NCBI GenBank assembly: GCA_016930085.1
Contig: JAFGHO010000067.1
Coordinates: 1,041 to 65,040 of the forward strand
Direction: 5' to 3'
Length of the DNA: 64,000 nucleotides
DNA from: Spirochaetales bacterium
GTDB taxonomy: Bacteria; Spirochaetota; Spirochaetia; SZUA-6; JAFGRV01
Below the pieces are notes generated by a model, which saw nothing but the letters and a program-made list of their open reading frames with translations, made no database searches and was not told where the DNA came from. How positions within the stretch are numbered: the stretch's first letter is position 1; each line of letters begins with the position of its first letter. The translations under genes and the position numbers were made by a program. Shown here piece after piece: positions 54,435-64,000 of the stretch.

Positions 54435-56747
54435 TTACCGGTACACGATGACCTCGCGGGCGGCCGGTGTGAACCTGCAGCTGCCGGAACGGCTCACTTC
54501 GATTTCAGTCCCGTCGACAAAGGCCCTGCTCATGAAAAAAGGAATCGAAAACTCGATATACTCCGGCTGGGAGGAATAGTGGTTGTCGAGTGAGAGGATG
54601 ATCCGGTCGGATTTCGCTTCAATGATAAAGGCGATGGTCCCGAAATGACTCGGCGCGTCGGCCACCTCGATGAGCTCTCCCGCCTCCATCCAGCGGTGGT
54701 AGACCAGCGGTGTAATCACCAGCCCCCCTTCTTCCTCGAAGAAGAGGAAGTTGCGTATAAGATGGAGAAGTTCCGCGCACGCCCACCCGTGGTGGCCGTC
54801 TCCCATGCACCCCCCGCCGGTGACCGGATGTATCGCTTCAGGGAAGCTTCCGGTTCCGGTGATGGTATCCATAAGCCACTGGAGAATCGGATGAAGACGG
54901 GTGGAGCGGCGAAAAAGATAGCATTCGGCGATCTGGAGGGTGAGATAGACATTATAACCCGAATGAATGACCCGGTGGAAAAATGCCTGTTTCTGCTGGT
55001 AATTTTTTCTGAGAACATGAAGCGTCCCCGTTAGCCGGTCGTCACGGGGCTCGAGAAGCCTCAACGGGTAGAGGGCGACGATGGCCCCCACGATGGAGCT
55101 GTCGATATCCCTGTTCGGCGAGGAAGGGATAAGCGGAAAGGGATATTTGTGCTGTGTTTTTTCGATTGAAGAAAATATCGCTTTTTCATAATCGTCGATT
55201 TCCCGCCGTACTTCTTCGACGGCCTTCGATTTTTCGAGTTCGGCCGCGATGGCGAGAAAGCTTTTGCATCCCGCCAGCGCCCAGAAATTATCCCAGTAGA
55301 AGGTATCGTTCGGTCCGAAGTGCTCGGCGGAATAGCCGGGGGGGAGCAGCCCGTTTTTCTTTACCCGTTTCCGCTTTATCCAGTGAAAACCGGCGTACGC
55401 CGAATCATAGATATCCTCGAGAAAGCCCCTGTTTCGCGTATAGCGATAGTGCTCGTAATACGTCCAGAGCGCCTGGCCGTTCGAATCCCATTCGCCTTCC
55501 TGGGACATGAAATACCCGTCGGGCCGCTGGCGTTCCGGGTATGCCTTGAGAATTCGCTCCGTTTCCGCGTGAAACCCCATCTTGTCGAGGGCGGTCAGCA
55601 TATACGCGTCGTCCCTGAACCATTGATGATGGTAGGTGTACGGGCCGGGCGTGATCGAGGTGCCGTCGATAAAAAGATAGAGGTGCGCCTTGTTACCGTT
55701 GAAGGTATTCTGCATTTTTTGATACGGCAGCCGGATTCGTATGCTTTTCGCCAGGCGGTGTTCCCATTCGGTGATGACCCGCCGCTTGATCTCCTGATAC
55801 GGAAGGATATCGATGAGGGTCCGGTCGACAGTACGGGAGGGCGCAGGCGCCGCCGTCGCACGGACTTCGATTTCCTTCACTTCACCGGCCTCGAGGTCCA
55901 GCCTGTATTCCGCGAAGGCGGATGCGAGACCGTGTTTGCACGAGACCGCGGTTCTCCCGCGGTCGGAAAAGGCCTCCCATGACGTATCGCCGTCATCCTG
56001 GTTGGAGCAGTACACCCTGTCCGGTTTGTCGAGGAGAAAGAGTCCGTCATTGCCGTCGACTGAGAATATATTCCTTTCTTCATCGTATTCGATACGATGG
56101 ACGAGCGATATACCTTCGGGATTGTAGGGTCTGATATTGACGAATATCGATACCGAAACGTTCTGCGTATCGAGGTTCTCGACGCTGATCGAATTGGAGA
56201 TGATCTGGCGGCCTTCGTGTTTGTGGACAAAGACCTTTGTCCGGATGCGGAGGTCCTTTTTGACGAACTGGGACACGACGATCGGCAATTGTTTAACAAG
56301 GTACTGGTAGACCTCCTGGTTTTTCGACGGGACGACCAGGTACCCCTTTTTCCCCACCCAGAAATCGGTCGACCAGGAATCGTACCACGGGGTGAGGAGT
56401 CCGGTGGGATCGACGATCGGTTCCCGTTCGGAATCGAGCGCCCCGATCGCGGTCCAGTTTCTGTGGGTGAGGTTGATCGAGAGGACGGTCCCGGGGACGT
56501 AGCTGGTGCCCGCCTCGTCGTACTGCCGCTGGACCCAGTACGGAAGGACCCAGTCGAGGTTGCACTGGATCGCGAACATGTTGAGCAGACCGCGGGAGGC
56601 GACGTCGACGCTGATCGCGGCGATCTCTTTCGGGATCGCGATCTCGGTGCTTTCTCCCAGCTTGAAACTTGCGTCGATGCGCTTCAGGGCATCGATGAGT
56701 CCGTAATGTTCCGCGAGTTTTTTAAGAAAAAAGGATCGTATTCCCAC
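54435..56747 (-). CDS. Putative (alpha/alpha)6-barrel glycoside hydrolase (GH15/GH63/GDE-like)
   Basis: 770 aa. YHHQWFRDDAYM resembles the WxRD motif of GH15-type barrels. Apparent GTG start. Family not resolved. Confidence 0.45.
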   Translation of the reverse strand: MGIRSFFLKKLAEHYGLIDALKRIDASFKLGESTEIAIPKEIAAISVDVASRGLLNMFAIQCNLDWVLPYWVQRQYDEAGTSYVPGTVLSINLTHRNWTAIGALDSEREPIVDPTGLLTPWYDSWSTDFWVGKKGYLVVPSKNQEVYQYLVKQLPIVVSQFVKKDLRIRTKVFVHKHEGRQIISNSISVENLDTQNVSVSIFVNIRPYNPEGISLVHRIEYDEERNIFSVDGNDGLFLLDKPDRVYCSNQDDGDTSWEAFSDRGRTAVSCKHGLASAFAEYRLDLEAGEVKEIEVRATAAPAPSRTVDRTLIDILPYQEIKRRVITEWEHRLAKSIRIRLPYQKMQNTFNGNKAHLYLFIDGTSITPGPYTYHHQWFRDDAYMLTALDKMGFHAETERILKAYPERQRPDGYFMSQEGEWDSNGQALWTYYEHYRYTRNRGFLEDIYDSAYAGFHWIKRKRVKKNGLLPPGYSAEHFGPNDTFYWDNFWALAGCKSFLAIAAELEKSKAVEEVRREIDDYEKAIFSSIEKTQHKYPFPLIPSSPNRDIDSSIVGAIVALYPLRLLEPRDDRLTGTLHVLRKNYQQKQAFFHRVIHSGYNVYLTLQIAECYLFRRSTRLHPILQWLMDTITGTGSFPEAIHPVTGGGCMGDGHHGWACAELLHLIRNFLFFEEEGGLVITPLVYHRWMEAGELIEVADAPSHFGTIAFIIEAKSDRIILSLDNHYSSQPEYIEFSIPFFMSRAFVDGTEIEVSRSGSCRFTPAAREVIVYR

Positions 56748-56883: not shown

Positions 56884-58335
56884 TCAAAACCGGTAATGAA
56901 TCCATTCGTCGCCGTAATGTCCGTACAGCGACCATATTTCGCCGTTTGTGAGGTCATAAAGCGACCTGCTTCCCTTGACGGCCGCACGGGGGTTTGTCCC
57001 GTAATAATTGTAGGCCGGCGGATGCAGGTAATCGACGAGCCGCTTCGCCTTTTCGACATCGATACCACCGTAATTGTCAAGAAGGAGATTGGTCAGGGTT
57101 TCGTAACGCCACCGTGAGTCCGGGATGGCGGCGTTTCCGGAAAGGATCACCATCTGAGGAACGATGTAGTGATTGGCGAAGACCAGGAGGTCGGGTTTAT
57201 CCTCGATCTGTTTGGGCAAGCCGGAGATGAGGTTGTAGAACCGCGGGTAGGTGTAATCGGCGTACCGGATTTTCGTCAGGGTTGCCGATGTTTCGATCAC
57301 CGCCCCTTTGTTTTCGCTTTTTCCGCTTGCAAGGGCGATAATCCATGATATGCCGAGGTCCGCGTTCGTGATGTAATCGACACCCTCGGATAATTTTCTG
57401 CTGTACTGGAGGGCCCGTCTGTTCGCCATCAGGACACCCATTCCCACGTTCGTGACATTCGCCGCGACAGCGGGCGCCATGTCGCACCCGATACCGATCC
57501 CGTTTGCGTTCATCCCGGCAACAAGGCCGACCCAGCCCGGAAGCGTCGGTGAAACGAACCTGTAACCGTTCCGGGGACAGTATTCGACAAAGAGCATTTC
57601 CTCATGGAGATACGCGTCGGTAAACATGAAATTTCTTCCCATGAGTGTTCTTTTATCCGTTGTTCCGTTGCCGTAGACGATGAACCCGTCGCACATATGC
57701 GGTGCGAAGTTGTTTTTTATGCCGAGGACGGGCGATACGATCGGGTAGGCGACCCCGAGCAGGATGTCGAATGCGATATTGACGACCAGGATGTTGTCGT
57801 ACTCGACGGCGTATCCTTTTGCCGTGACACCGTCATATATGCCGCGCATTTCATCCCTGAACTCTTCCGGTATGTTGTCTTCGAAGATCCCCGACGTCGT
57901 CCTGAAGGCGTTGCAGACGAGTCTCGTAACCGCGGCGCCGACTTTGGACGTGAACTCCGAGGCTGTCATGTCCATGTAGTTGGCCAGAATCGTGATGATG
58001 AAATCGTCAGAGGCCAAACGGCTCACGTTACGGGCAAGAAGGTATCCGTGCTGGTACCCCATCTGGTAGCCCGTTCCTTCGATGTGAAGAAATTTTTTTC
58101 CCGCCGCATTCACAGCGAGGTATCCTTTTTTGTCCGGGGCATAGACCGGAGCGCCGAAGTCATCCGGCCCGGCGATCGACCGCGTCCCATGGGATTGTTC
58201 CACAGCCGTTTCATCACGCCCGGTCCGTTCGTCAAGCGAACAGGCGGCAAGTCCTGCGAGAAACAGCGTTACCAGAAGTAGTGCTTCGAAACGGAATAAT
58301 AACCCGTTATGTGAATGTGTTTTTTTGTGAATCAT
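56884..58335 (-). CDS. Hypothetical lipoprotein (possibly Ntn-hydrolase / peptidase C45-like)
   Basis: RBS AGGAGG. Lipobox LAAC. 484 aa. Weak resemblance to C45 acyltransferase/hydrolases. Confidence 0.4.
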   Translation of the reverse strand: MIHKKTHSHNGLLFRFEALLLVTLFLAGLAACSLDERTGRDETAVEQSHGTRSIAGPDDFGAPVYAPDKKGYLAVNAAGKKFLHIEGTGYQMGYQHGYLLARNVSRLASDDFIITILANYMDMTASEFTSKVGAAVTRLVCNAFRTTSGIFEDNIPEEFRDEMRGIYDGVTAKGYAVEYDNILVVNIAFDILLGVAYPIVSPVLGIKNNFAPHMCDGFIVYGNGTTDKRTLMGRNFMFTDAYLHEEMLFVEYCPRNGYRFVSPTLPGWVGLVAGMNANGIGIGCDMAPAVAANVTNVGMGVLMANRRALQYSRKLSEGVDYITNADLGISWIIALASGKSENKGAVIETSATLTKIRYADYTYPRFYNLISGLPKQIEDKPDLLVFANHYIVPQMVILSGNAAIPDSRWRYETLTNLLLDNYGGIDVEKAKRLVDYLHPPAYNYYGTNPRAAVKGSRSLYDLTNGEIWSLYGHYGDEWIHYRF

Positions 58336-58421
58336 TTTTTCCTCCTGCACGATCATGGCATGATTGTCCGATTCGGTCAAATATGTTTTAAAAAAAACGG
58401 TAAATAATACGCCAATCATAC

Positions 58422-58450
58422 TTGACATTTTATGATTTTGGGTATAGATT
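58422..58450 (+). promoter_or_regulatory. Sigma70-like promoter (TTGACA-N17-TAGATT) of leu leader
   Basis: TTGACA at 58422-58427. -10 TAGATT at 58445-58450 (or TATAGA with a 15-nt spacer). Confidence 0.4.
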
Positions 58451-58483
58451 GGAATTAAAGACGCGAAAGGGATAATAGAAGCA

Positions 58484-58615
58484 ATGAGATTTTCAGGATG
58501 CGGTTTAACGTTATCACTAAACCTCCTCACCCTTACCGGCGGGCTCCTTGGTCTACAGATGGGGAGCTCGGTAGTGAAAGAGGCATGTCTGAAGATTCCA
58601 TTGCACGACATTTAG
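58484..58615 (+). CDS. Leucine-rich leader peptide (43 aa) of leuA attenuator
   Basis: MRFSGCGLTLSLNLLTLTGGLLGLQMGSSVVKEACLKIPLHDI. Nine Leu among residues 8-24 (codons TTA, CTA, CTC, CTT). Ends 26 nt before the terminator stem. Confidence 0.45.
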   Translation: MRFSGCGLTLSLNLLTLTGGLLGLQMGSSVVKEACLKIPLHDI

Positions 58616-58640
58616 GCAATTTCAGGAATTGGAAATCGGA

Positions 58641-58683
58641 AAGCCCGCTACTGAGCTACTCAGGAGCGGGCTTTTTTATTTTT
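58641..58683 (+). terminator. Intrinsic terminator (attenuator) immediately upstream of the leuA RBS
   Basis: 14-bp stem AAGCCCGCTaCTGAG/CTCAGgAGCGGGCTT followed by TTTTTTATTTTT. Leader segment GGCGGGCT (58538-58545) can pair with the stem's 5' arm AGCCCGC (58642-58648) as an alternative antiterminator. Confidence 0.7.
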
Positions 58684-58704
58684 ATACCATTAAGGAGGTG
58701 TATT

Positions 58705-60372
58705 ATGCCAAAGTATCAGCCATTTCCGAAAATCGACCTCGAGAACAGAATGTGGCCGGACGCGGCCATTACCAAAGCCCCGATCTGGTGCAGTGTCGAC
58801 CTTCGTGACGGGAACCAGGCACTTGCCACGCCAATGAATATAGAAGAGAAATTAAGAATGTTTCAGCTCCTCGTCGATGTCGGCTTCAAGGAGATCGAGG
58901 TCGGATTCCCGTCGGCGTCGCAGATCGATTTCGATTTTTTACGCCGTCTGATCGACGGTCACCTGATCCCGGATGATGTCTGGATCCAGGTGCTCACCCA
59001 GTCGCGCGAACACCTGATCCGCCGGACGATCGAAGGATTGCAGGGCGCGGGGAAGGTGATCGTTCATCTCTACAATTCGACATCGCCGCTTCAGCGGAAG
59101 GTGACCTTCAACAAGACAAAGGAAGAAATCAAGGAGATAGCGGCCACCGGAACGAAACTCGTCAAATCCCTCGTCCCGGAATTGAAAGGCGCGGAAGTGC
59201 GGTTCGAGTATTCACCCGAGAGTTTTTCGGACACGGAAACCGACTACGCCCTCGAAGTATGCGAGGCGGTGATGGACGTCTGGGAGCCGACTGAAAAAAA
59301 CAGGATCATCCTCAACCTGCCGGACACGGTGCAATGGACGACCCCGAACATCCACGCGGACCAGGTCGAATGGTTCATCCGCAACATGAAACACCGGGAA
59401 AAGGCGATCATCAGCCTGCATACCCACAACGACCGGGGAACAGGCGTGGCTGCTACCGAACTCGCCCTGCTCGCCGGCGCGGAGCGCGTCGAGGGGACGC
59501 TTTTCGGAAACGGCGAACGGACGGGAAACCTCGACATTATCGTCGTCGCGTTGAACATGTTCGCAAACGGTGTCGATCCGGGACTCGATTTCGGCAATAT
59601 CCCGGCGATCCGCAAGGTGTACGAGGAATGCACGAAAATGACCGTTCACGAACGCCACCCCTATTCCGGCGACCTCGTGTTCACCGCGTTTTCCGGTTCG
59701 CACCAGGACGCCATCAAGAAGGGGATGGACATGAGGGCCGGGAACAAGGACAAGGACTCGAAGTGGGAGGTTCCCTACCTGCCCATCGATCCGCAGGATA
59801 TCGGGCGGACCTACCAGGCGATCATCAGGATCAACAGCCAGAGCGGCAAGGGCGGGGTCGCCTACATCATGTCGAGGGATTTCGGCATCGAACTCCCCAA
59901 GGCGATGCACCCCGAAATCGGGGCCGCGGTCAACCGGCTCGCCGACGAATCGGGACGCGAGCTTTCGCCGCAGGAGATTTACGGCGTGTTCAAAAAGGAA
60001 TACCTGATGCGGGAAAAACCCCTCCGGCTCGTCACCCTTCACACCATCGAGAACGGAGCCGCCGAACACGGCGTCTCGTGCCATGCGGAAGTGGAGTATA
60101 ACGGTGAGGTGTGCGAAATAAAGGGACGGGGAAACGGTCCCATCGACGCCTTCGTCCACGCCATGCAGCAGCTGGGGATCGAAAAGTTCTCGCTCACCGA
60201 TTTTCACGAGCACGCGATTTCAAGGGGATCGGAAGCGGAGGCGGTCGCCTTCGTCCAGATCGAACGGCCCAAAGGGAGCGCCTTCTGGGGCGCGGGGGTC
60301 GACACGAACATCAGCTACGCGGGACTCAAGGCCCTCCTGAGCGCGTATAACAGGTCGGTTGCCGAGGGCTGA
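58705..60372 (+). CDS. leuA: 2-isopropylmalate synthase (long, LeuA type 2)
   Basis: RBS AGGAGG. Motifs WCSVDLRDGNQAL, HTHNDRGTGVA, LeuA dimerisation/regulatory C-terminal domain. Confidence 0.9.
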   Translation: MPKYQPFPKIDLENRMWPDAAITKAPIWCSVDLRDGNQALATPMNIEEKLRMFQLLVDVGFKEIEVGFPSASQIDFDFLRRLIDGHLIPDDVWIQVLTQSREHLIRRTIEGLQGAGKVIVHLYNSTSPLQRKVTFNKTKEEIKEIAATGTKLVKSLVPELKGAEVRFEYSPESFSDTETDYALEVCEAVMDVWEPTEKNRIILNLPDTVQWTTPNIHADQVEWFIRNMKHREKAIISLHTHNDRGTGVAATELALLAGAERVEGTLFGNGERTGNLDIIVVALNMFANGVDPGLDFGNIPAIRKVYEECTKMTVHERHPYSGDLVFTAFSGSHQDAIKKGMDMRAGNKDKDSKWEVPYLPIDPQDIGRTYQAIIRINSQSGKGGVAYIMSRDFGIELPKAMHPEIGAAVNRLADESGRELSPQEIYGVFKKEYLMREKPLRLVTLHTIENGAAEHGVSCHAEVEYNGEVCEIKGRGNGPIDAFVHAMQQLGIEKFSLTDFHEHAISRGSEAEAVAFVQIERPKGSAFWGAGVDTNISYAGLKALLSAYNRSVAEG

Positions 60373-60490: not shown

Positions 60491-61258
60491 TCACTCCTTT
60501 TTCGTATAGTAGATTTCGTAGGTGAGGACTTCGTTTCCTGTTTTATGTTCGCCGGTCAGAACGACGTAATTGTTCACGAAGCCGAGGTTGAACCGGTACC
60601 CGGAATCGCCTTCCGGATAACGCCATTCGAACTCTTCGATTTTTTTCTGTGATTTGATGATGAAAACATCCTTTTGCCCGATATCCGGATGGAACCCGAT
60701 CGAAAAGACGAACTCGTCTTCGAGGGCGATGGCGATCACTGACCCCCGTAGCGCGGTGATGTAACTGTCCGGAAATTTGTGCCGGTTTATGATCTTGAAT
60801 ACCCCGTATTCGCCGGCCCATCGTTTGTCCTCCGGCCGTATCTCGTCCGAGTAATCGACACCGTGAACGGGAAGACGGTCCGGGGCCCCCTCCTCCATCG
60901 AAATATAATGGCCGTACGTCCAGCCCGCGAGGCCGTTCTTCCGCTTGATGAGGTACCAGTAGTCTTTCAGGTTGTAGACCTCATAGCGTTCGCCGGTCCT
61001 GCAGAAGACCGTGACCTCCTCACCCAGGCCGAGGTTTCCTACGATCTCCGCATTGAGGGTGGGGATGTTCCGCACCCTCACCTGGTCTTCCGTGATTTTT
61101 CCGGAAACCGCGCACGTTCCCGAAGCCATGCCGCCCGCTTCTCCGTCTGCGGACGTTCGGTCATCTGTGGTTGAGGTTTCCCGGGCCGCCTTCGGCGCGC
61201 AGCCCTGCATCAGTATGACTATAATGGAAACAAAAAGAATCGGTTTAATCGCGTTCAT
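60491..61258 (-). CDS. Lipoprotein with bacterial SH3 (SH3b) domain
   Basis: Lipobox LMQGC. SH3_3-like segment VRVRNIPTLNAEIVGNLGLGEEVTV. Confidence 0.5.
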   Translation of the reverse strand: MNAIKPILFVSIIVILMQGCAPKAARETSTTDDRTSADGEAGGMASGTCAVSGKITEDQVRVRNIPTLNAEIVGNLGLGEEVTVFCRTGERYEVYNLKDYWYLIKRKNGLAGWTYGHYISMEEGAPDRLPVHGVDYSDEIRPEDKRWAGEYGVFKIINRHKFPDSYITALRGSVIAIALEDEFVFSIGFHPDIGQKDVFIIKSQKKIEEFEWRYPEGDSGYRFNLGFVNNYVVLTGEHKTGNEVLTYEIYYTKKE

Positions 61259-61363: not shown

Positions 61364-63307
61364 TTATTTCCGCGAAATGGAAAAAAAGGGATAAAGGGTC
61401 CGCGTCCCGGATTCGTCGAACACCTCGCCGTAGGGGATGCGGACGAGTTTGTTCGCGATCGATTCGGATGCCCACACACCTTTTTCGTCGAACGAGTAGA
61501 CGGCGACATAGTGGCCGATCCACGACCCGCCCTGTTTGTACCTGTACTGGATCGCAGCCGGTTCTCCCCGTATCAGGCTGGCGAATAATGAATTGGCCGA
61601 ATCCTCCCATGTGTAGGCGAGGCCGTAAAGATCCGCCAGGTCCGTCATCATGGCGTAGTCCCACAGGTCGTCGCGCGATTTTCCGATCTTTTTTTCCGCC
61701 CCGTCCACGTCGATCGCTTCCCCGGTCATGTACTGGTACAGATGTTTGACAGCGAAGCCGAAACAGGCATTGTGGTGCTGTTTGGAACAGGGAAACGGGT
61801 AATCGGGTTTCATTTTCGGCCTTATATTCCTCTTTACGATTTCGCCGTACGCGAGTCTTTCACCGGCAAGGAACAAAAGATCGCCCAGGTGCGCTGTATA
61901 CGCCCCCGCGGTTTTCGCTTGTCCGGTTTCCATGGCGGCTTCGTACGGGGTTTTTCCACGGTAGTCCCGAAGAAAGGGATTCGCCCCCCGTTCGAGAAGC
62001 AACTCCGTTATCCCGATTTTTTCGTCCGATGCGCAGAACGACAGGGGGGGGCCGTTGTTGTGAAACGAGAGGATATTCATGTCCGCCGATTTGTCCAGAA
62101 GGAACTTCGCCATCTCGAGGTTGTTGTGCATGGCGGCATAATGGAGCGGCGCGTACAGCCCTTCGAAGGCGTCGACCTCCGTCCCCGCCGTATATGTTTT
62201 TTTCATCAGTTCGACGTCGTTGGTTTCCGCGGTCTCGACGAATGAAAGCGGGACATCGTTTTTGACAAAGCCTTCCGGCATATAGGGTTCGATTTTCGAG
62301 GCGAGAAAATCGCGCATTCCCAGCGAACTGCTTACCAGTTCGCCGAAGGATACGGCGAGAAATCCTTTTCGCGTGATGAGGTGATTCCGGCTTTCAATGG
62401 CAGCGGCATCGCGTCCGGGCCAGTTTTCGCACAATGCCGTCACGTCCACGACCGGGCAGGGGGCGGGGCGCTTCCGGAGTATCCGTTCGATCCTGTTTAT
62501 ATCCGTGTTTTTGAATCCCAGAAAGACCTTCACCTCCGGGTAGATCTTCCCCACACGGTCGAGAAGCGCGGTCTCCCAGACGAACATGTTTTTATCCGTA
62601 AATACGGCAAGCACTACGATTTTTCCTTCGAGTCCGCTTATACGGTATGGTTCGCCCGTTTCGATATCGGTAAAAGGGGTGTCCGGCATTTTTTTCGCGG
62701 GATCGGTCACGTCCTTTTTCGGGTACAGGGCCGTTTTTTTGTGTGTTTCCTTCCGTGCCGTCTTTTTTGCCGTCTCGAGGCGTTTTGCGATGTGAGCCCG
62801 GTTTTTCTCCAGGTTTTCGACCAGCGTCCGCATGACGGTATCGGCGTCGATGAGGGCCGTGGAAGTGCTCGAACCGCAGATTTCAAAGTCCGCCGCCGAG
62901 GCGAGGTACAGGGAGCAGCGCGCCGAAACATGGCGGGCTGGCTTCCGGGTGATATCGAGGGAGACGGTCGCGATGAGATCCGGCCCGAGGGCTTCGTTTA
63001 TCCTCGCGTAAACCTCCTCCGTATAGCCCTCCGAAGCGTCGGTGCCCAGCTCATCGAGGAACGGCTTCAACCGCTCCCGCGGAACGACCTTGAAGACCGG
63101 GCTTTCGGCGAGATACGACAGCAGGGCGGAGTCAAAGGCATCCGCGTCTTTCCTCGTGGTATGTTCGGAGACGGCCGGGGGCAGGACCGCGATCTCGAAC
63201 TCCCCCGTATCGTTTCCGGTGCTTCCGTTTCCCTGGGACACGCACCCGGGAAACCATGTCGAGATGATAAGTGAAAGTACGAGATAGTTCCGTAATTTAC
63301 GTTTCAT
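61364..63307 (-). CDS. Lipoprotein with ankyrin repeats and C-terminal C39-like (papain-fold) peptidase domain
   Basis: Lipobox WFPGC. Ankyrin repeats (LHYAAMHNNLEMAKFLLDKSADMN...). C-terminal NACFGFAV ... GHYVAVYSF Cys/His pair resembling the C39-like domain at 22327-23826. Confidence 0.6.
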   Translation of the reverse strand: MKRKLRNYLVLSLIISTWFPGCVSQGNGSTGNDTGEFEIAVLPPAVSEHTTRKDADAFDSALLSYLAESPVFKVVPRERLKPFLDELGTDASEGYTEEVYARINEALGPDLIATVSLDITRKPARHVSARCSLYLASAADFEICGSSTSTALIDADTVMRTLVENLEKNRAHIAKRLETAKKTARKETHKKTALYPKKDVTDPAKKMPDTPFTDIETGEPYRISGLEGKIVVLAVFTDKNMFVWETALLDRVGKIYPEVKVFLGFKNTDINRIERILRKRPAPCPVVDVTALCENWPGRDAAAIESRNHLITRKGFLAVSFGELVSSSLGMRDFLASKIEPYMPEGFVKNDVPLSFVETAETNDVELMKKTYTAGTEVDAFEGLYAPLHYAAMHNNLEMAKFLLDKSADMNILSFHNNGPPLSFCASDEKIGITELLLERGANPFLRDYRGKTPYEAAMETGQAKTAGAYTAHLGDLLFLAGERLAYGEIVKRNIRPKMKPDYPFPCSKQHHNACFGFAVKHLYQYMTGEAIDVDGAEKKIGKSRDDLWDYAMMTDLADLYGLAYTWEDSANSLFASLIRGEPAAIQYRYKQGGSWIGHYVAVYSFDEKGVWASESIANKLVRIPYGEVFDESGTRTLYPFFSISRK

Positions 63308-63724: not shown

Positions 63725-64000
63725 CTAAAACCCCGATATAATCCCGACATAATACTGTGCGATTCTGAGGGCGTCGGCTATGGTAATCGAGCCGTCCCTG
63801 TTGACGTCCGCATTGGCGGTAATAAAACCGGAAGGCGAAAGCCCGACGTAATATTGCGCCGTCAGCAATGCATCGACGATACTGACGGAGCCGTCGCCGT
63901 TGACATCGCCCAACGTTCCGGGTACGGGCGTCGAGGTATTGTTCACCGCTTCGAGCAGGGCCTGTTGTATTGCGTAATAAGCCGGTTTTTTGTTGCCGCT
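63725..64000 (-). CDS. C-terminal type-I dockerin module of a larger protein whose 5' part lies beyond the window end
   Basis: Reading frame open to base 64000. Duplicated dockerin segments GDVNGDGSVSIVDALLTAQYYVG / ADVNRDGSITIADALRIAQYYVG, near-identical to the dockerin of the LRR protein at 29.8 kb. Confidence 0.7.
   Translation of the reverse strand, partial: SGNKKPAYYAIQQALLEAVNNTSTPVPGTLGDVNGDGSVSIVDALLTAQYYVGLSPSGFITANADVNRDGSITIADALRIAQYYVGIISGF

Follow-up and report, generated by a model that had tools for sequence, protein, structure and literature searches.

The 280 nt that precede leuA in a 64,000-nucleotide stretch of DNA from a Spirochaetales bacterium (contig JAFGHO010000067.1 of assembly GCA_016930085.1, hereafter the window) appear to form a regulatory leader with a tiny open reading frame (ORF) of its own, which gene callers leave unreported. 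Taking the sequence and comparative evidence together, we consider it very likely that this element is a leucine-sensing, ribosome-mediated (leader-peptide) transcription attenuator of leuA, the gene for 2-isopropylmalate synthase. This is the assignment that a sequence-only reading of the same DNA had put forward, and none of the refuting outcomes that could be looked for in silico was found. The parts of such an attenuator are present and conserved, the small ORFs before leuA genes of this type are specific for leucine, and the alternative RNA pairings are complementary and covary. The data indicate that an uncultured spirochaete couples transcription of leuA to charged tRNA-Leu by a classical mechanism of the enterobacterial leu and trp type. 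What is new is the occurrence of this mechanism in a bacterial group for which we found no description of it; as the mechanism itself is textbook material, it will come as no surprise to a specialist.

A Leucine-Rich Leader ORF and a Strong Terminator Precede leuA

The leader-peptide ORF (leuL-like) extends from 58484 to 58615 on the + strand, as do all features of the leader described below, and comprises 43 codons followed by a TAG stop codon at 58613–58615, encoding the peptide MRFSGCGLTLSLNLLTLTGGLLGLQMGSSVVKEACLKIPLHDI. Within it, codons 8–24 (58505–58555) form a regulatory run in which 9 of the 17 codons specify leucine (codons 8, 10, 12, 14, 15, 17, 21, 22 and 24, read as TTA, TTA, CTA, CTC, CTC, CTT, CTC, CTT and CTA), so that the ORF length and leucine count given by the sequence-only reading are correct on translation. 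Dinucleotide-preserving shuffles of the intergenic region 58335–58704 reached nine leucines in 17 codons in 0 of 5000 cases, and eight in 10 of 5000. The rare codons TTA and CTA (together 4.5% of the 198 leucine codons in five window genes) make up 4 of the 9 leucine codons of the run, an excess to be read with the caveat that the leader region has a G+C content of 41%, compared to 49% for the window as a whole. Rare leucine codons are also known from the leu leader of Salmonella, where they affect the sensitivity of the system (PMC1183508). A strong terminator adjoins only two of the small ORFs with single-amino-acid runs in the 64-kb window, the leuA leader and an 11-codon serine-run ORF that we take to be spurious.

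An intrinsic terminator follows the leader ORF at 58638–58683. Its 5′ arm (region 3, 58638–58655) and 3′ arm (region 4, 58659–58676) are separated by the loop CUA and form 17 pairs, including two G·U and three basal A-U pairs, with a single A·G mismatch and a predicted energy of −25.8 kcal mol–1. The sequence T6-A-T5 (58672–58683; U-tract 58672–58677 and 58679–58683) closes the terminator, and a gap of 8 nt separates the U-rich tract from the sequence AAGGAGG (58692–58698), which we read as the Shine-Dalgarno sequence of leuA, 6 nt before its ATG. The hairpin is part of the minimum free energy (MFE) fold of the whole leader, itself more stable than that of shuffled sequences (z = −3.97). Thus, both the very stable hairpin with its U-tract just before the leuA ribosome-binding site and its presence in the MFE structure were as anticipated. 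A simple consensus terminator scanner did not list the hairpin at 58638–58676, probably because of the internal A·G mismatch.

Upstream of the ORF, a sigma-70-type promoter is predicted at 58422–58450, with a −35 element TTGACA (58422–58427), a 17-nt spacer and a −10 element TAGATT (58445–58450). It agrees with the consensus at 10 of 12 positions, and was the top sigma-70-like site of the region in a promoter scan; the pattern TTGACA-N17-TAGnTT also precedes the leader in the close relatives L114, L115 and L116, introduced below. Transcription would then start near 58457.

The gene behind this leader, leuA (58705–60372, + strand), encodes a long-form 2-isopropylmalate synthase of 555 amino acids (Pfam HMGL-like, IPMS_D2 and LeuA_dimer) and is monocistronic here. 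The mechanical ORF list fuses the leader region to leuA in a 624-amino-acid ORF (58498–60372), and the sequence-only reading was right to call this a misjoining: the window LeuA is 100% identical to a 555-amino-acid database protein (P0001) annotated by NCBI as 2-isopropylmalate synthase, from a Spirochaetales metagenome-assembled genome, and LeuA homologues begin at MPKYQPF, which places the ATG at 58705. The 69-codon 5′ extension is therefore wrong. The gene on the 5′ side of leuA is divergent and the next gene on the 3′ side lies on the opposite strand, so that leuA stands alone, and the hairpin on the + strand cannot be the terminator of a neighboring gene.

Another small ORF is found on the strand opposite the 5′ portion of the leader (58455–58517, – strand; VITLNRILKISLLLLSLSRL), with a GTG start and 8 leucines in 17 codons, a number reached by about 0.2% of shuffles. 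No strong hairpin follows it in our scan (best −7.1 kcal mol–1), and no leucine-rich counterpart was seen by eye on the antisense strand of the L114 leader. The purine-rich composition of the sense strand probably accounts for this ORF.

Alternative RNA Helices and Their Conservation

The leader can fold into mutually exclusive helices that share a switch strand, region 2 (58558–58577). Its core, AGCUCGGUAGUG (58565–58576), spans the "SVV" codons 28–31 of the leader ORF and has two alternative partners, region 1 and the terminator 5′ arm. Region 1 (58533–58553) is the 5′ strand of an anti-antiterminator hairpin and lies within the leucine run, at codons 17–24; it pairs with 58558–58577 in the MFE fold, and the local 1:2 hairpin has a predicted energy of −21.1 kcal mol–1. 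In the 2:3 antiterminator, AGCUCGGUAGUG pairs instead with CGCUACUGAGCU (58646–58657) through 12 contiguous pairs, giving a duplex energy of −23.7 kcal mol–1 that beats 199 of 200 shuffles (z = −3.05) and excluding the terminator helix. The energies of the 1:2, 2:3 and 3:4 helices (−21.1, −23.7 and −25.8 kcal mol–1, respectively) thus follow a ranking like that of the alternative helices of the trp attenuator. Between region 2 and the terminator, a middle hairpin (58594–58630) is predicted at −8.7 kcal mol–1; its loop or 3′ side contains the leader stop codon, and its role in the switch is presumptive.

A protein search yielded a closer group of leuA genes, with 71–73% LeuA identity to the window protein, the contigs of which supplied the leaders L114–L117. 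These are homologous to the window leader (MKKTGITLITLLSLLLTLLISELLGLL..SVV.. and similar) and contain ORFs of 41–45 codons, encoding MKKTGITLITLLSLLLTLLISELLGLLRKISVVANGCLGLQGSNM in L114, MNNTGIILLTLLSLLLTLLLSLLRRDSVVANRCLGLQGNQM in L115, MNNKGIMLLTLQSLLLTLLLSKLLGLLGTNSVVATGCLGLQEKQM in L116 and VNKSGMALLSLLNLLLTLLSLEFLNLYNRSSVVKKACLMVTARL in L117. The terminator sequence GCCCGCU(A/G)CUGAG...GCGGGC is common to the window and all four relatives, in which the region 2 box CTC(G/A)GT(A/G)GTG is also kept and a homologous promoter stands before the leader. Insertions and deletions in the leucine run are of 6 and 12 nt, so that the reading frame is maintained, whereas the L117 leader shifts frame after "CL" while its RNA sequence stays similar, which places conservation of that part at the RNA rather than the peptide level. 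The middle hairpin shows a compensatory change, from GGUUACA...UGUAACC in L114 and L115 to GGCUACA...UGUAGCC in L116. Conservation of the leader ORF and of its leucine enrichment, which the sequence-only reading had named as a point on which its proposal could fail, was in this way found both in L114–L117 and in the wider survey described below.

Covariation was scored on an alignment of seven leaders (window, L114–L118 and L122), which was assembled from hand-anchored segments and spans two clades. In this alignment, the 2:3 antiterminator is 86.7% paired, compared to 38–57% when the strands are slid to other registers, and four of its pairs carry compensatory double changes (for example, C-G to A-U and A-U to G-C); its covariation score was equalled by 0 of 500 shuffles. 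The terminator stem is 94.5% paired in the seven relatives. An nhmmer search with a five-sequence leader alignment returned full-length homology for the window and L114–L117 only, and in other spirochaetes only the terminator part of the leader was similar. RNAalifold suggested a different register for the 1:2 helix, CACUACUnAG with CUCGGUAGUG, in which the relatives are well paired but which shows zero covariation; the window prefers region 1 at 58533–58553.

Folding Simulations of the Proposed Switch

To model translation, the ribosome was represented as a 30-nt mask centered on a codon, and the transcript was cut just before the 3′ arm of the terminator and then folded. In the unmasked window transcript, region 2 is held in a hairpin with 58533–58553. 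Placing the mask on leucine codons 8–11 or 16–24 leads 58565–58584 to pair with 58643–58657, that is, with the 5′ arm and loop of the terminator. The shift in fold to be expected on masking the leucine codons was thus seen in the cut transcript, from the preterminator fold to the antiterminator, and L116 shows the same mask-dependent switch. In these in silico folds, the regulatory codons overlap the very strand that sequesters the antiterminator (region 1, codons 17–24).

We note, however, that several observations weigh against an attenuator of this design. When the full-length leader is folded with the mask at every codon in turn, the terminator persists wherever the ribosome is placed. As the terminator persists at equilibrium, the switch would have to be kinetic, which is usual for attenuators; folding cannot demonstrate kinetics. 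In addition, the antiterminator forms in the cut transcripts of L114, L115 and L117 even with no mask present, and in the window it also arises with the mask on codons 1–7 or on the stop codon, so that the off state would depend on the order of folding and would not be purely thermodynamic. Stalls modeled at leucine codons 12–15 leave region 2 unfreed in the window. The leader ORF is preceded by only a weak Shine-Dalgarno-like sequence, AAAGGGA, 11 nt upstream, and the corresponding sequences in the leaders of the relatives are likewise weak and poorly spaced; the hand anchoring and two-clade span of the covariation alignment count on the same side. The conserved promoter pattern and the frame-keeping insertions and deletions argue for a leader that is transcribed from this site and translated, the weak ribosome-binding site argues against it, and translation of the leader ORF is to be regarded as putative.

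The first alternative to be weighed retains the attenuator and changes its antiterminator. The sequence-only reading had assigned this role to an 8-nt segment of the leucine run, GGCGGGCU, complementary to the 5′ arm of the terminator. The complementarity is real: the segment, GGCGGGCT, truly lies at 58538–58545 (codons 19–21) and forms seven Watson-Crick pairs and one G·U pair with AGCCCGCU (58643–58650), at −15.2 kcal mol–1, or −19.9 kcal mol–1 when extended. A ribosome stalled at early leucine codons (8–12) would probably leave the segment uncovered, and L114 retains seven of the eight pairs, with a central mismatch. The pairing is, however, intact in the window genome only, with two mismatches in L116, most of the pairs broken in L117 and the segment deleted in L115. 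It is weaker than the pairing between 58565–58576 and 58646–58657 and was never selected in our constrained folds, and the segment already forms part of the 1:2 hairpin, where a ribosome stalled late in the leucine run would cover it. We therefore consider it unlikely that GGCGGGCU is the antiterminator, and the conserved one lies elsewhere, at 58565–58576/58646–58657. We place the segment in region 1, as part of the anti-antiterminator strand that pairs with 58558–58577, while its pairing with AGCCCGCU could be a minor accessory interaction of the window genome.

Taking these limitations into account, the attenuator with the 2:3 antiterminator would operate as follows. Transcription would begin at the promoter, near 58457, and a ribosome would start on the 43-codon leader. 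Region 2 (58558–58577) could then pair either back with region 1 (58533–58553) or ahead with the 5′ arm of the terminator (12 base pairs, 58565–58576/58646–58657). When leucine is plentiful, the ribosome would pass the leucine codons and reach the stop codon (58613), which lies some 25 nt short of the terminator arm; region 2 would be occupied, or re-paired with region 1, such that the terminator forms and transcription ends before leuA. When leucine is scarce, the ribosome would stall in the leucine run and cover region 1, and the freed region 2 would capture the 5′ arm of the terminator once this has been made, such that no terminator forms and RNA polymerase reads into leuA. Expression of leuA would in this way be set by the supply of charged tRNA-Leu. 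Both the timing of these events (kinetic competition and pausing) and the response to leucine are read from sequence and predicted folds, and are to be taken as putative.

Leucine-Run Leaders before leuA in Three Phyla

Genome and metagenome scans with LeuA gave 113 loci with up to 68% identity to the window protein, from Spirochaetota, Opitutales and Desulfobulbales. At most of these loci, a leucine-run mini-ORF is followed by a strong terminator about 20–190 nt (mostly <100 nt) before leuA, with leader peptides such as MLRLSLLLLLNFLSR (Treponema), MKLLLSLLLLNRMPVRTEARGRDL (Desulfocapsaceae) and MMSFSRPAIATLLLLGLTLALSDS... (Alkalispirochaeta). Among 106 nonredundant regions upstream of long-form leuA, mini-ORFs with at least 5 leucines in 12 codons occur on the sense strand in 72 and on the antisense strand in 11; at a threshold of 6 leucines, the corresponding numbers are 49 and 4. 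None of the other 19 amino acids is enriched in the sense-strand mini-ORFs before these 106 genes. The genes that flank leuA differ between loci while the module stays, showing that the module belongs to leuA. Two cultured relatives, Salinispira pacifica (L120) and Spirochaeta africana DSM 8902 (L119, CP003282), have leaders built like that of the window.

At 61 loci from the three phyla that have both a mini-ORF and a terminator, the complementarity of the terminator 5′ arm to the segment after the leucine run exceeds that to shuffled sequences (mean z −1.6, with 23 loci below −2 and 7 above 0), and the leader stop codon usually lies about 20–40 nt before the terminator arm. It is thus quite possible, although we put this forward tentatively, that the window element is one of a large and uncurated set of leucine attenuators of long-form, stand-alone leuA in Spirochaetota, Desulfobulbales and part of Opitutales, built on a shared geometry: the leader ORF would itself encode the antiterminator strand, and its stop codon is found some 20–40 nt ahead of the terminator arm.

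The sequence-only reading had remarked that leucine leaders are little described in the kind of lineage from which this DNA seemed to come. This holds insofar as we found no published description, but leuA genes of this type are commonly preceded by such leaders in Spirochaetota, Desulfobulbales and some Opitutales, and the window element is no isolated oddity. Our full-text literature search, the reach of which did not extend to the broad survey of Lopatovskaya et al. (2010), where some of these taxa may be treated, returned no description of leuA leaders from spirochaetes, Opitutales or Desulfobulbales. A statement from 2010 held leader-peptide systems to be unknown beyond Proteobacteria and Actinobacteria, new cases in Firmicutes excepted (PMC2965389). 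The survey places the same solution before this leuA type in three phyla, where we found neither a publication nor an Rfam family to cover it, and provides a ready data set for defining a new RNA family and for testing repeated invention against inheritance of attenuators. If the wider set is real, classical attenuation would extend well beyond Proteobacteria, Actinobacteria and Firmicutes, raising the question of whether such modules arose repeatedly or moved with leuA between phyla. A further question would be whether the abundant terminated leader RNAs of about 220 nt also act in trans, as the leader RNA rnTrpL does in Sinorhizobium.

On the matter of transfer, the window LeuA is nearer to Opitutales LeuA (62–66% identity) than to most Treponema LeuA (52–59%), which hints at a possible transfer of long-form leuA between phyla. 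The leaders of the window group and of the Opitutales group are unlike each other. In five Opitutales loci (L002, L004, L005, L008 and L060), a conserved peptide MQTTxGNxxxLLGxLxxLLP(xxDLK) is encoded about 130–250 nt before leuA, and the predicted terminators are weak (−9 to −13 kcal mol–1) or absent; these leaders may be read out by another route, for example through Rho-dependent or translational control. Leader peptides of Desulfobulbales (e.g., L027, L030, L032, L033, L037 and L063) have a conserved C-terminus, ...(H/R)RxTVAxxxxLF, and its TVA codons fall on the strand for which pairing with the 5′ arm of the terminator is predicted (z as low as −5.4), giving a predicted antiterminator inside the ORF that follows the same design as in the window, in unrelated sequence.

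Comparison with Known Systems and Other Explanations

In some bacteria, leu or ilv genes are controlled by T-boxes or by proteins, and the hairpin before leuA could in principle be read by a T-box or riboswitch-like RNA or an RNA-binding protein, or act as a constitutive partial terminator, with the leucine-rich ORF being incidental. This precedent, the weak ribosome-binding site of the leader ORF and the highly structured leader RNA (z = −3.97) would all fit such an explanation. However, searches against Rfam gave no T-box, riboswitch or other match, either in the window at E-values up to 10 or in 19 relatives at gathering thresholds, where no leader family was found. The T-box model had no match in a permissive scan of 58250–58800, nor did Leu_leader (RF00512) match in the window at E-values up to 10, and the only hits in the window were subthreshold, terminator-like matches to the Trp, Thr, His and PyrG leaders. 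Moreover, leucine-specific mini-ORFs on the sense strand in three phyla, in sequences that are otherwise unrelated, are very hard to call incidental, and we thus consider control without a translating ribosome improbable.

A second alternative is translational control in the style of the actinobacterial LEU element, a pseudoknot in which the base stem pairs the leucine run with the leuA Shine-Dalgarno sequence and which has no terminator (Seliverstov et al. 2005, PMC1262725). In the window, the partner of the leuA Shine-Dalgarno sequence would be CCUCCU (58523–58528), and a stalled ribosome would free the ribosome-binding site. The run indeed contains ACCUCCU (the CUC CUC leucine codons), complementary to AGGAGGU at the leuA ribosome-binding site, with CUCCUUA facing UAAGGAG in L114–L116, and the LEU element is known for the same long-form leuA in Actinobacteria, with a leader ORF and leucine-codon run before it as here (PMC1262725). 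Complementarity of this kind is, however, at chance level, as 56 of 300 shuffled leader ORFs do as well in the window and the relatives are similar or worse; the MFE folds contain no such pairing, and the window leader has a strong terminator whereas the LEU element has none. This makes translational control of this type highly improbable. Weakest of all, and scarcely credible, is the proposal of a functional hydrophobic micropeptide (a membrane helix or signal-like peptide) as the product of the small ORF, with the hairpin merely as its terminator: the peptide is leucine-rich, about 40 residues long and conserved in four relatives, but its hydrophobic stretch mixes leucine with Thr, Ser, Asn and Gly and has no Ile, Val, Phe or Ala in the window genome, its C-terminal part is not conserved (L117 shifts frame and keeps the RNA), the peptides of the other phyla are unrelated save for the leucine run and always stand before leuA, and the conserved blocks coincide with RNA helices.

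Leucine-sensing attenuation as proposed here can also be set against known attenuators. In the enterobacterial leu leader, a mutually exclusive antiterminator and terminator lie directly before leuA and ribosome stalling prevents termination; leuL of E. coli comprises 28 codons, with four consecutive leucine codons. The window leader resembles this system in its short ORF with a leucine-codon run that includes rare codons (codon usage, PMC1183508), in its exclusive antiterminator and terminator directly before leuA and in its proposed stalling logic. It differs in its 43 codons with nine dispersed leucine codons, in an antiterminator strand that lies inside the leader ORF, in the lack of a sequence or structure match to RF00512, in the gene that it would regulate (a monocistronic long-form leuA rather than leuABCD) and in its spirochaete host. 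With the trp attenuator of E. coli, the window leader shares the four regions, the regulatory codons in region 1, and the similar energies of the 1:2 and 2:3 helices with a stronger 3:4 helix. In contrast, leucine would be the amino acid sensed, the stop codon is located downstream of region 2, whereas that of trp falls between regions 1 and 2, and there is an extra hairpin between regions 2 and 3. Closest with respect to the regulated gene is the leuL-leuA system of Corynebacterium glutamicum, in which the leucine leader peptide MTSRANLLLLRRGGSQRS mediates transcription attenuation (PMC8709942, citing Neshat et al. 2014) of the same long-form leuA as a single gene; the window peptide and RNA are unrelated to it, the leader is much longer, and the phylum is another.

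Genes Surrounding leuA

The divergent genes upstream of leuA are large (56887–58335, – strand, 483 amino acids, and 54438–56747, – strand, 770 amino acids), and a Pfam search of the two proteins gave no match for either; the 483-amino-acid protein starts with a lipoprotein-like signal (...LLLVTLFLAGLAAC). On the other side, Pfam identifies an ankyrin-repeat protein and an SH3_3-domain protein at 61367–63307 and 60494–61258 (both – strand). These adjoin an ORF of 73 amino acids (63725–63946, – strand) with two dockerin-like repeats, GDVNGDGSVSIVDALLTAQYYVG and NADVNRDGSITIADALRIAQYYVG, as seen in its translation.

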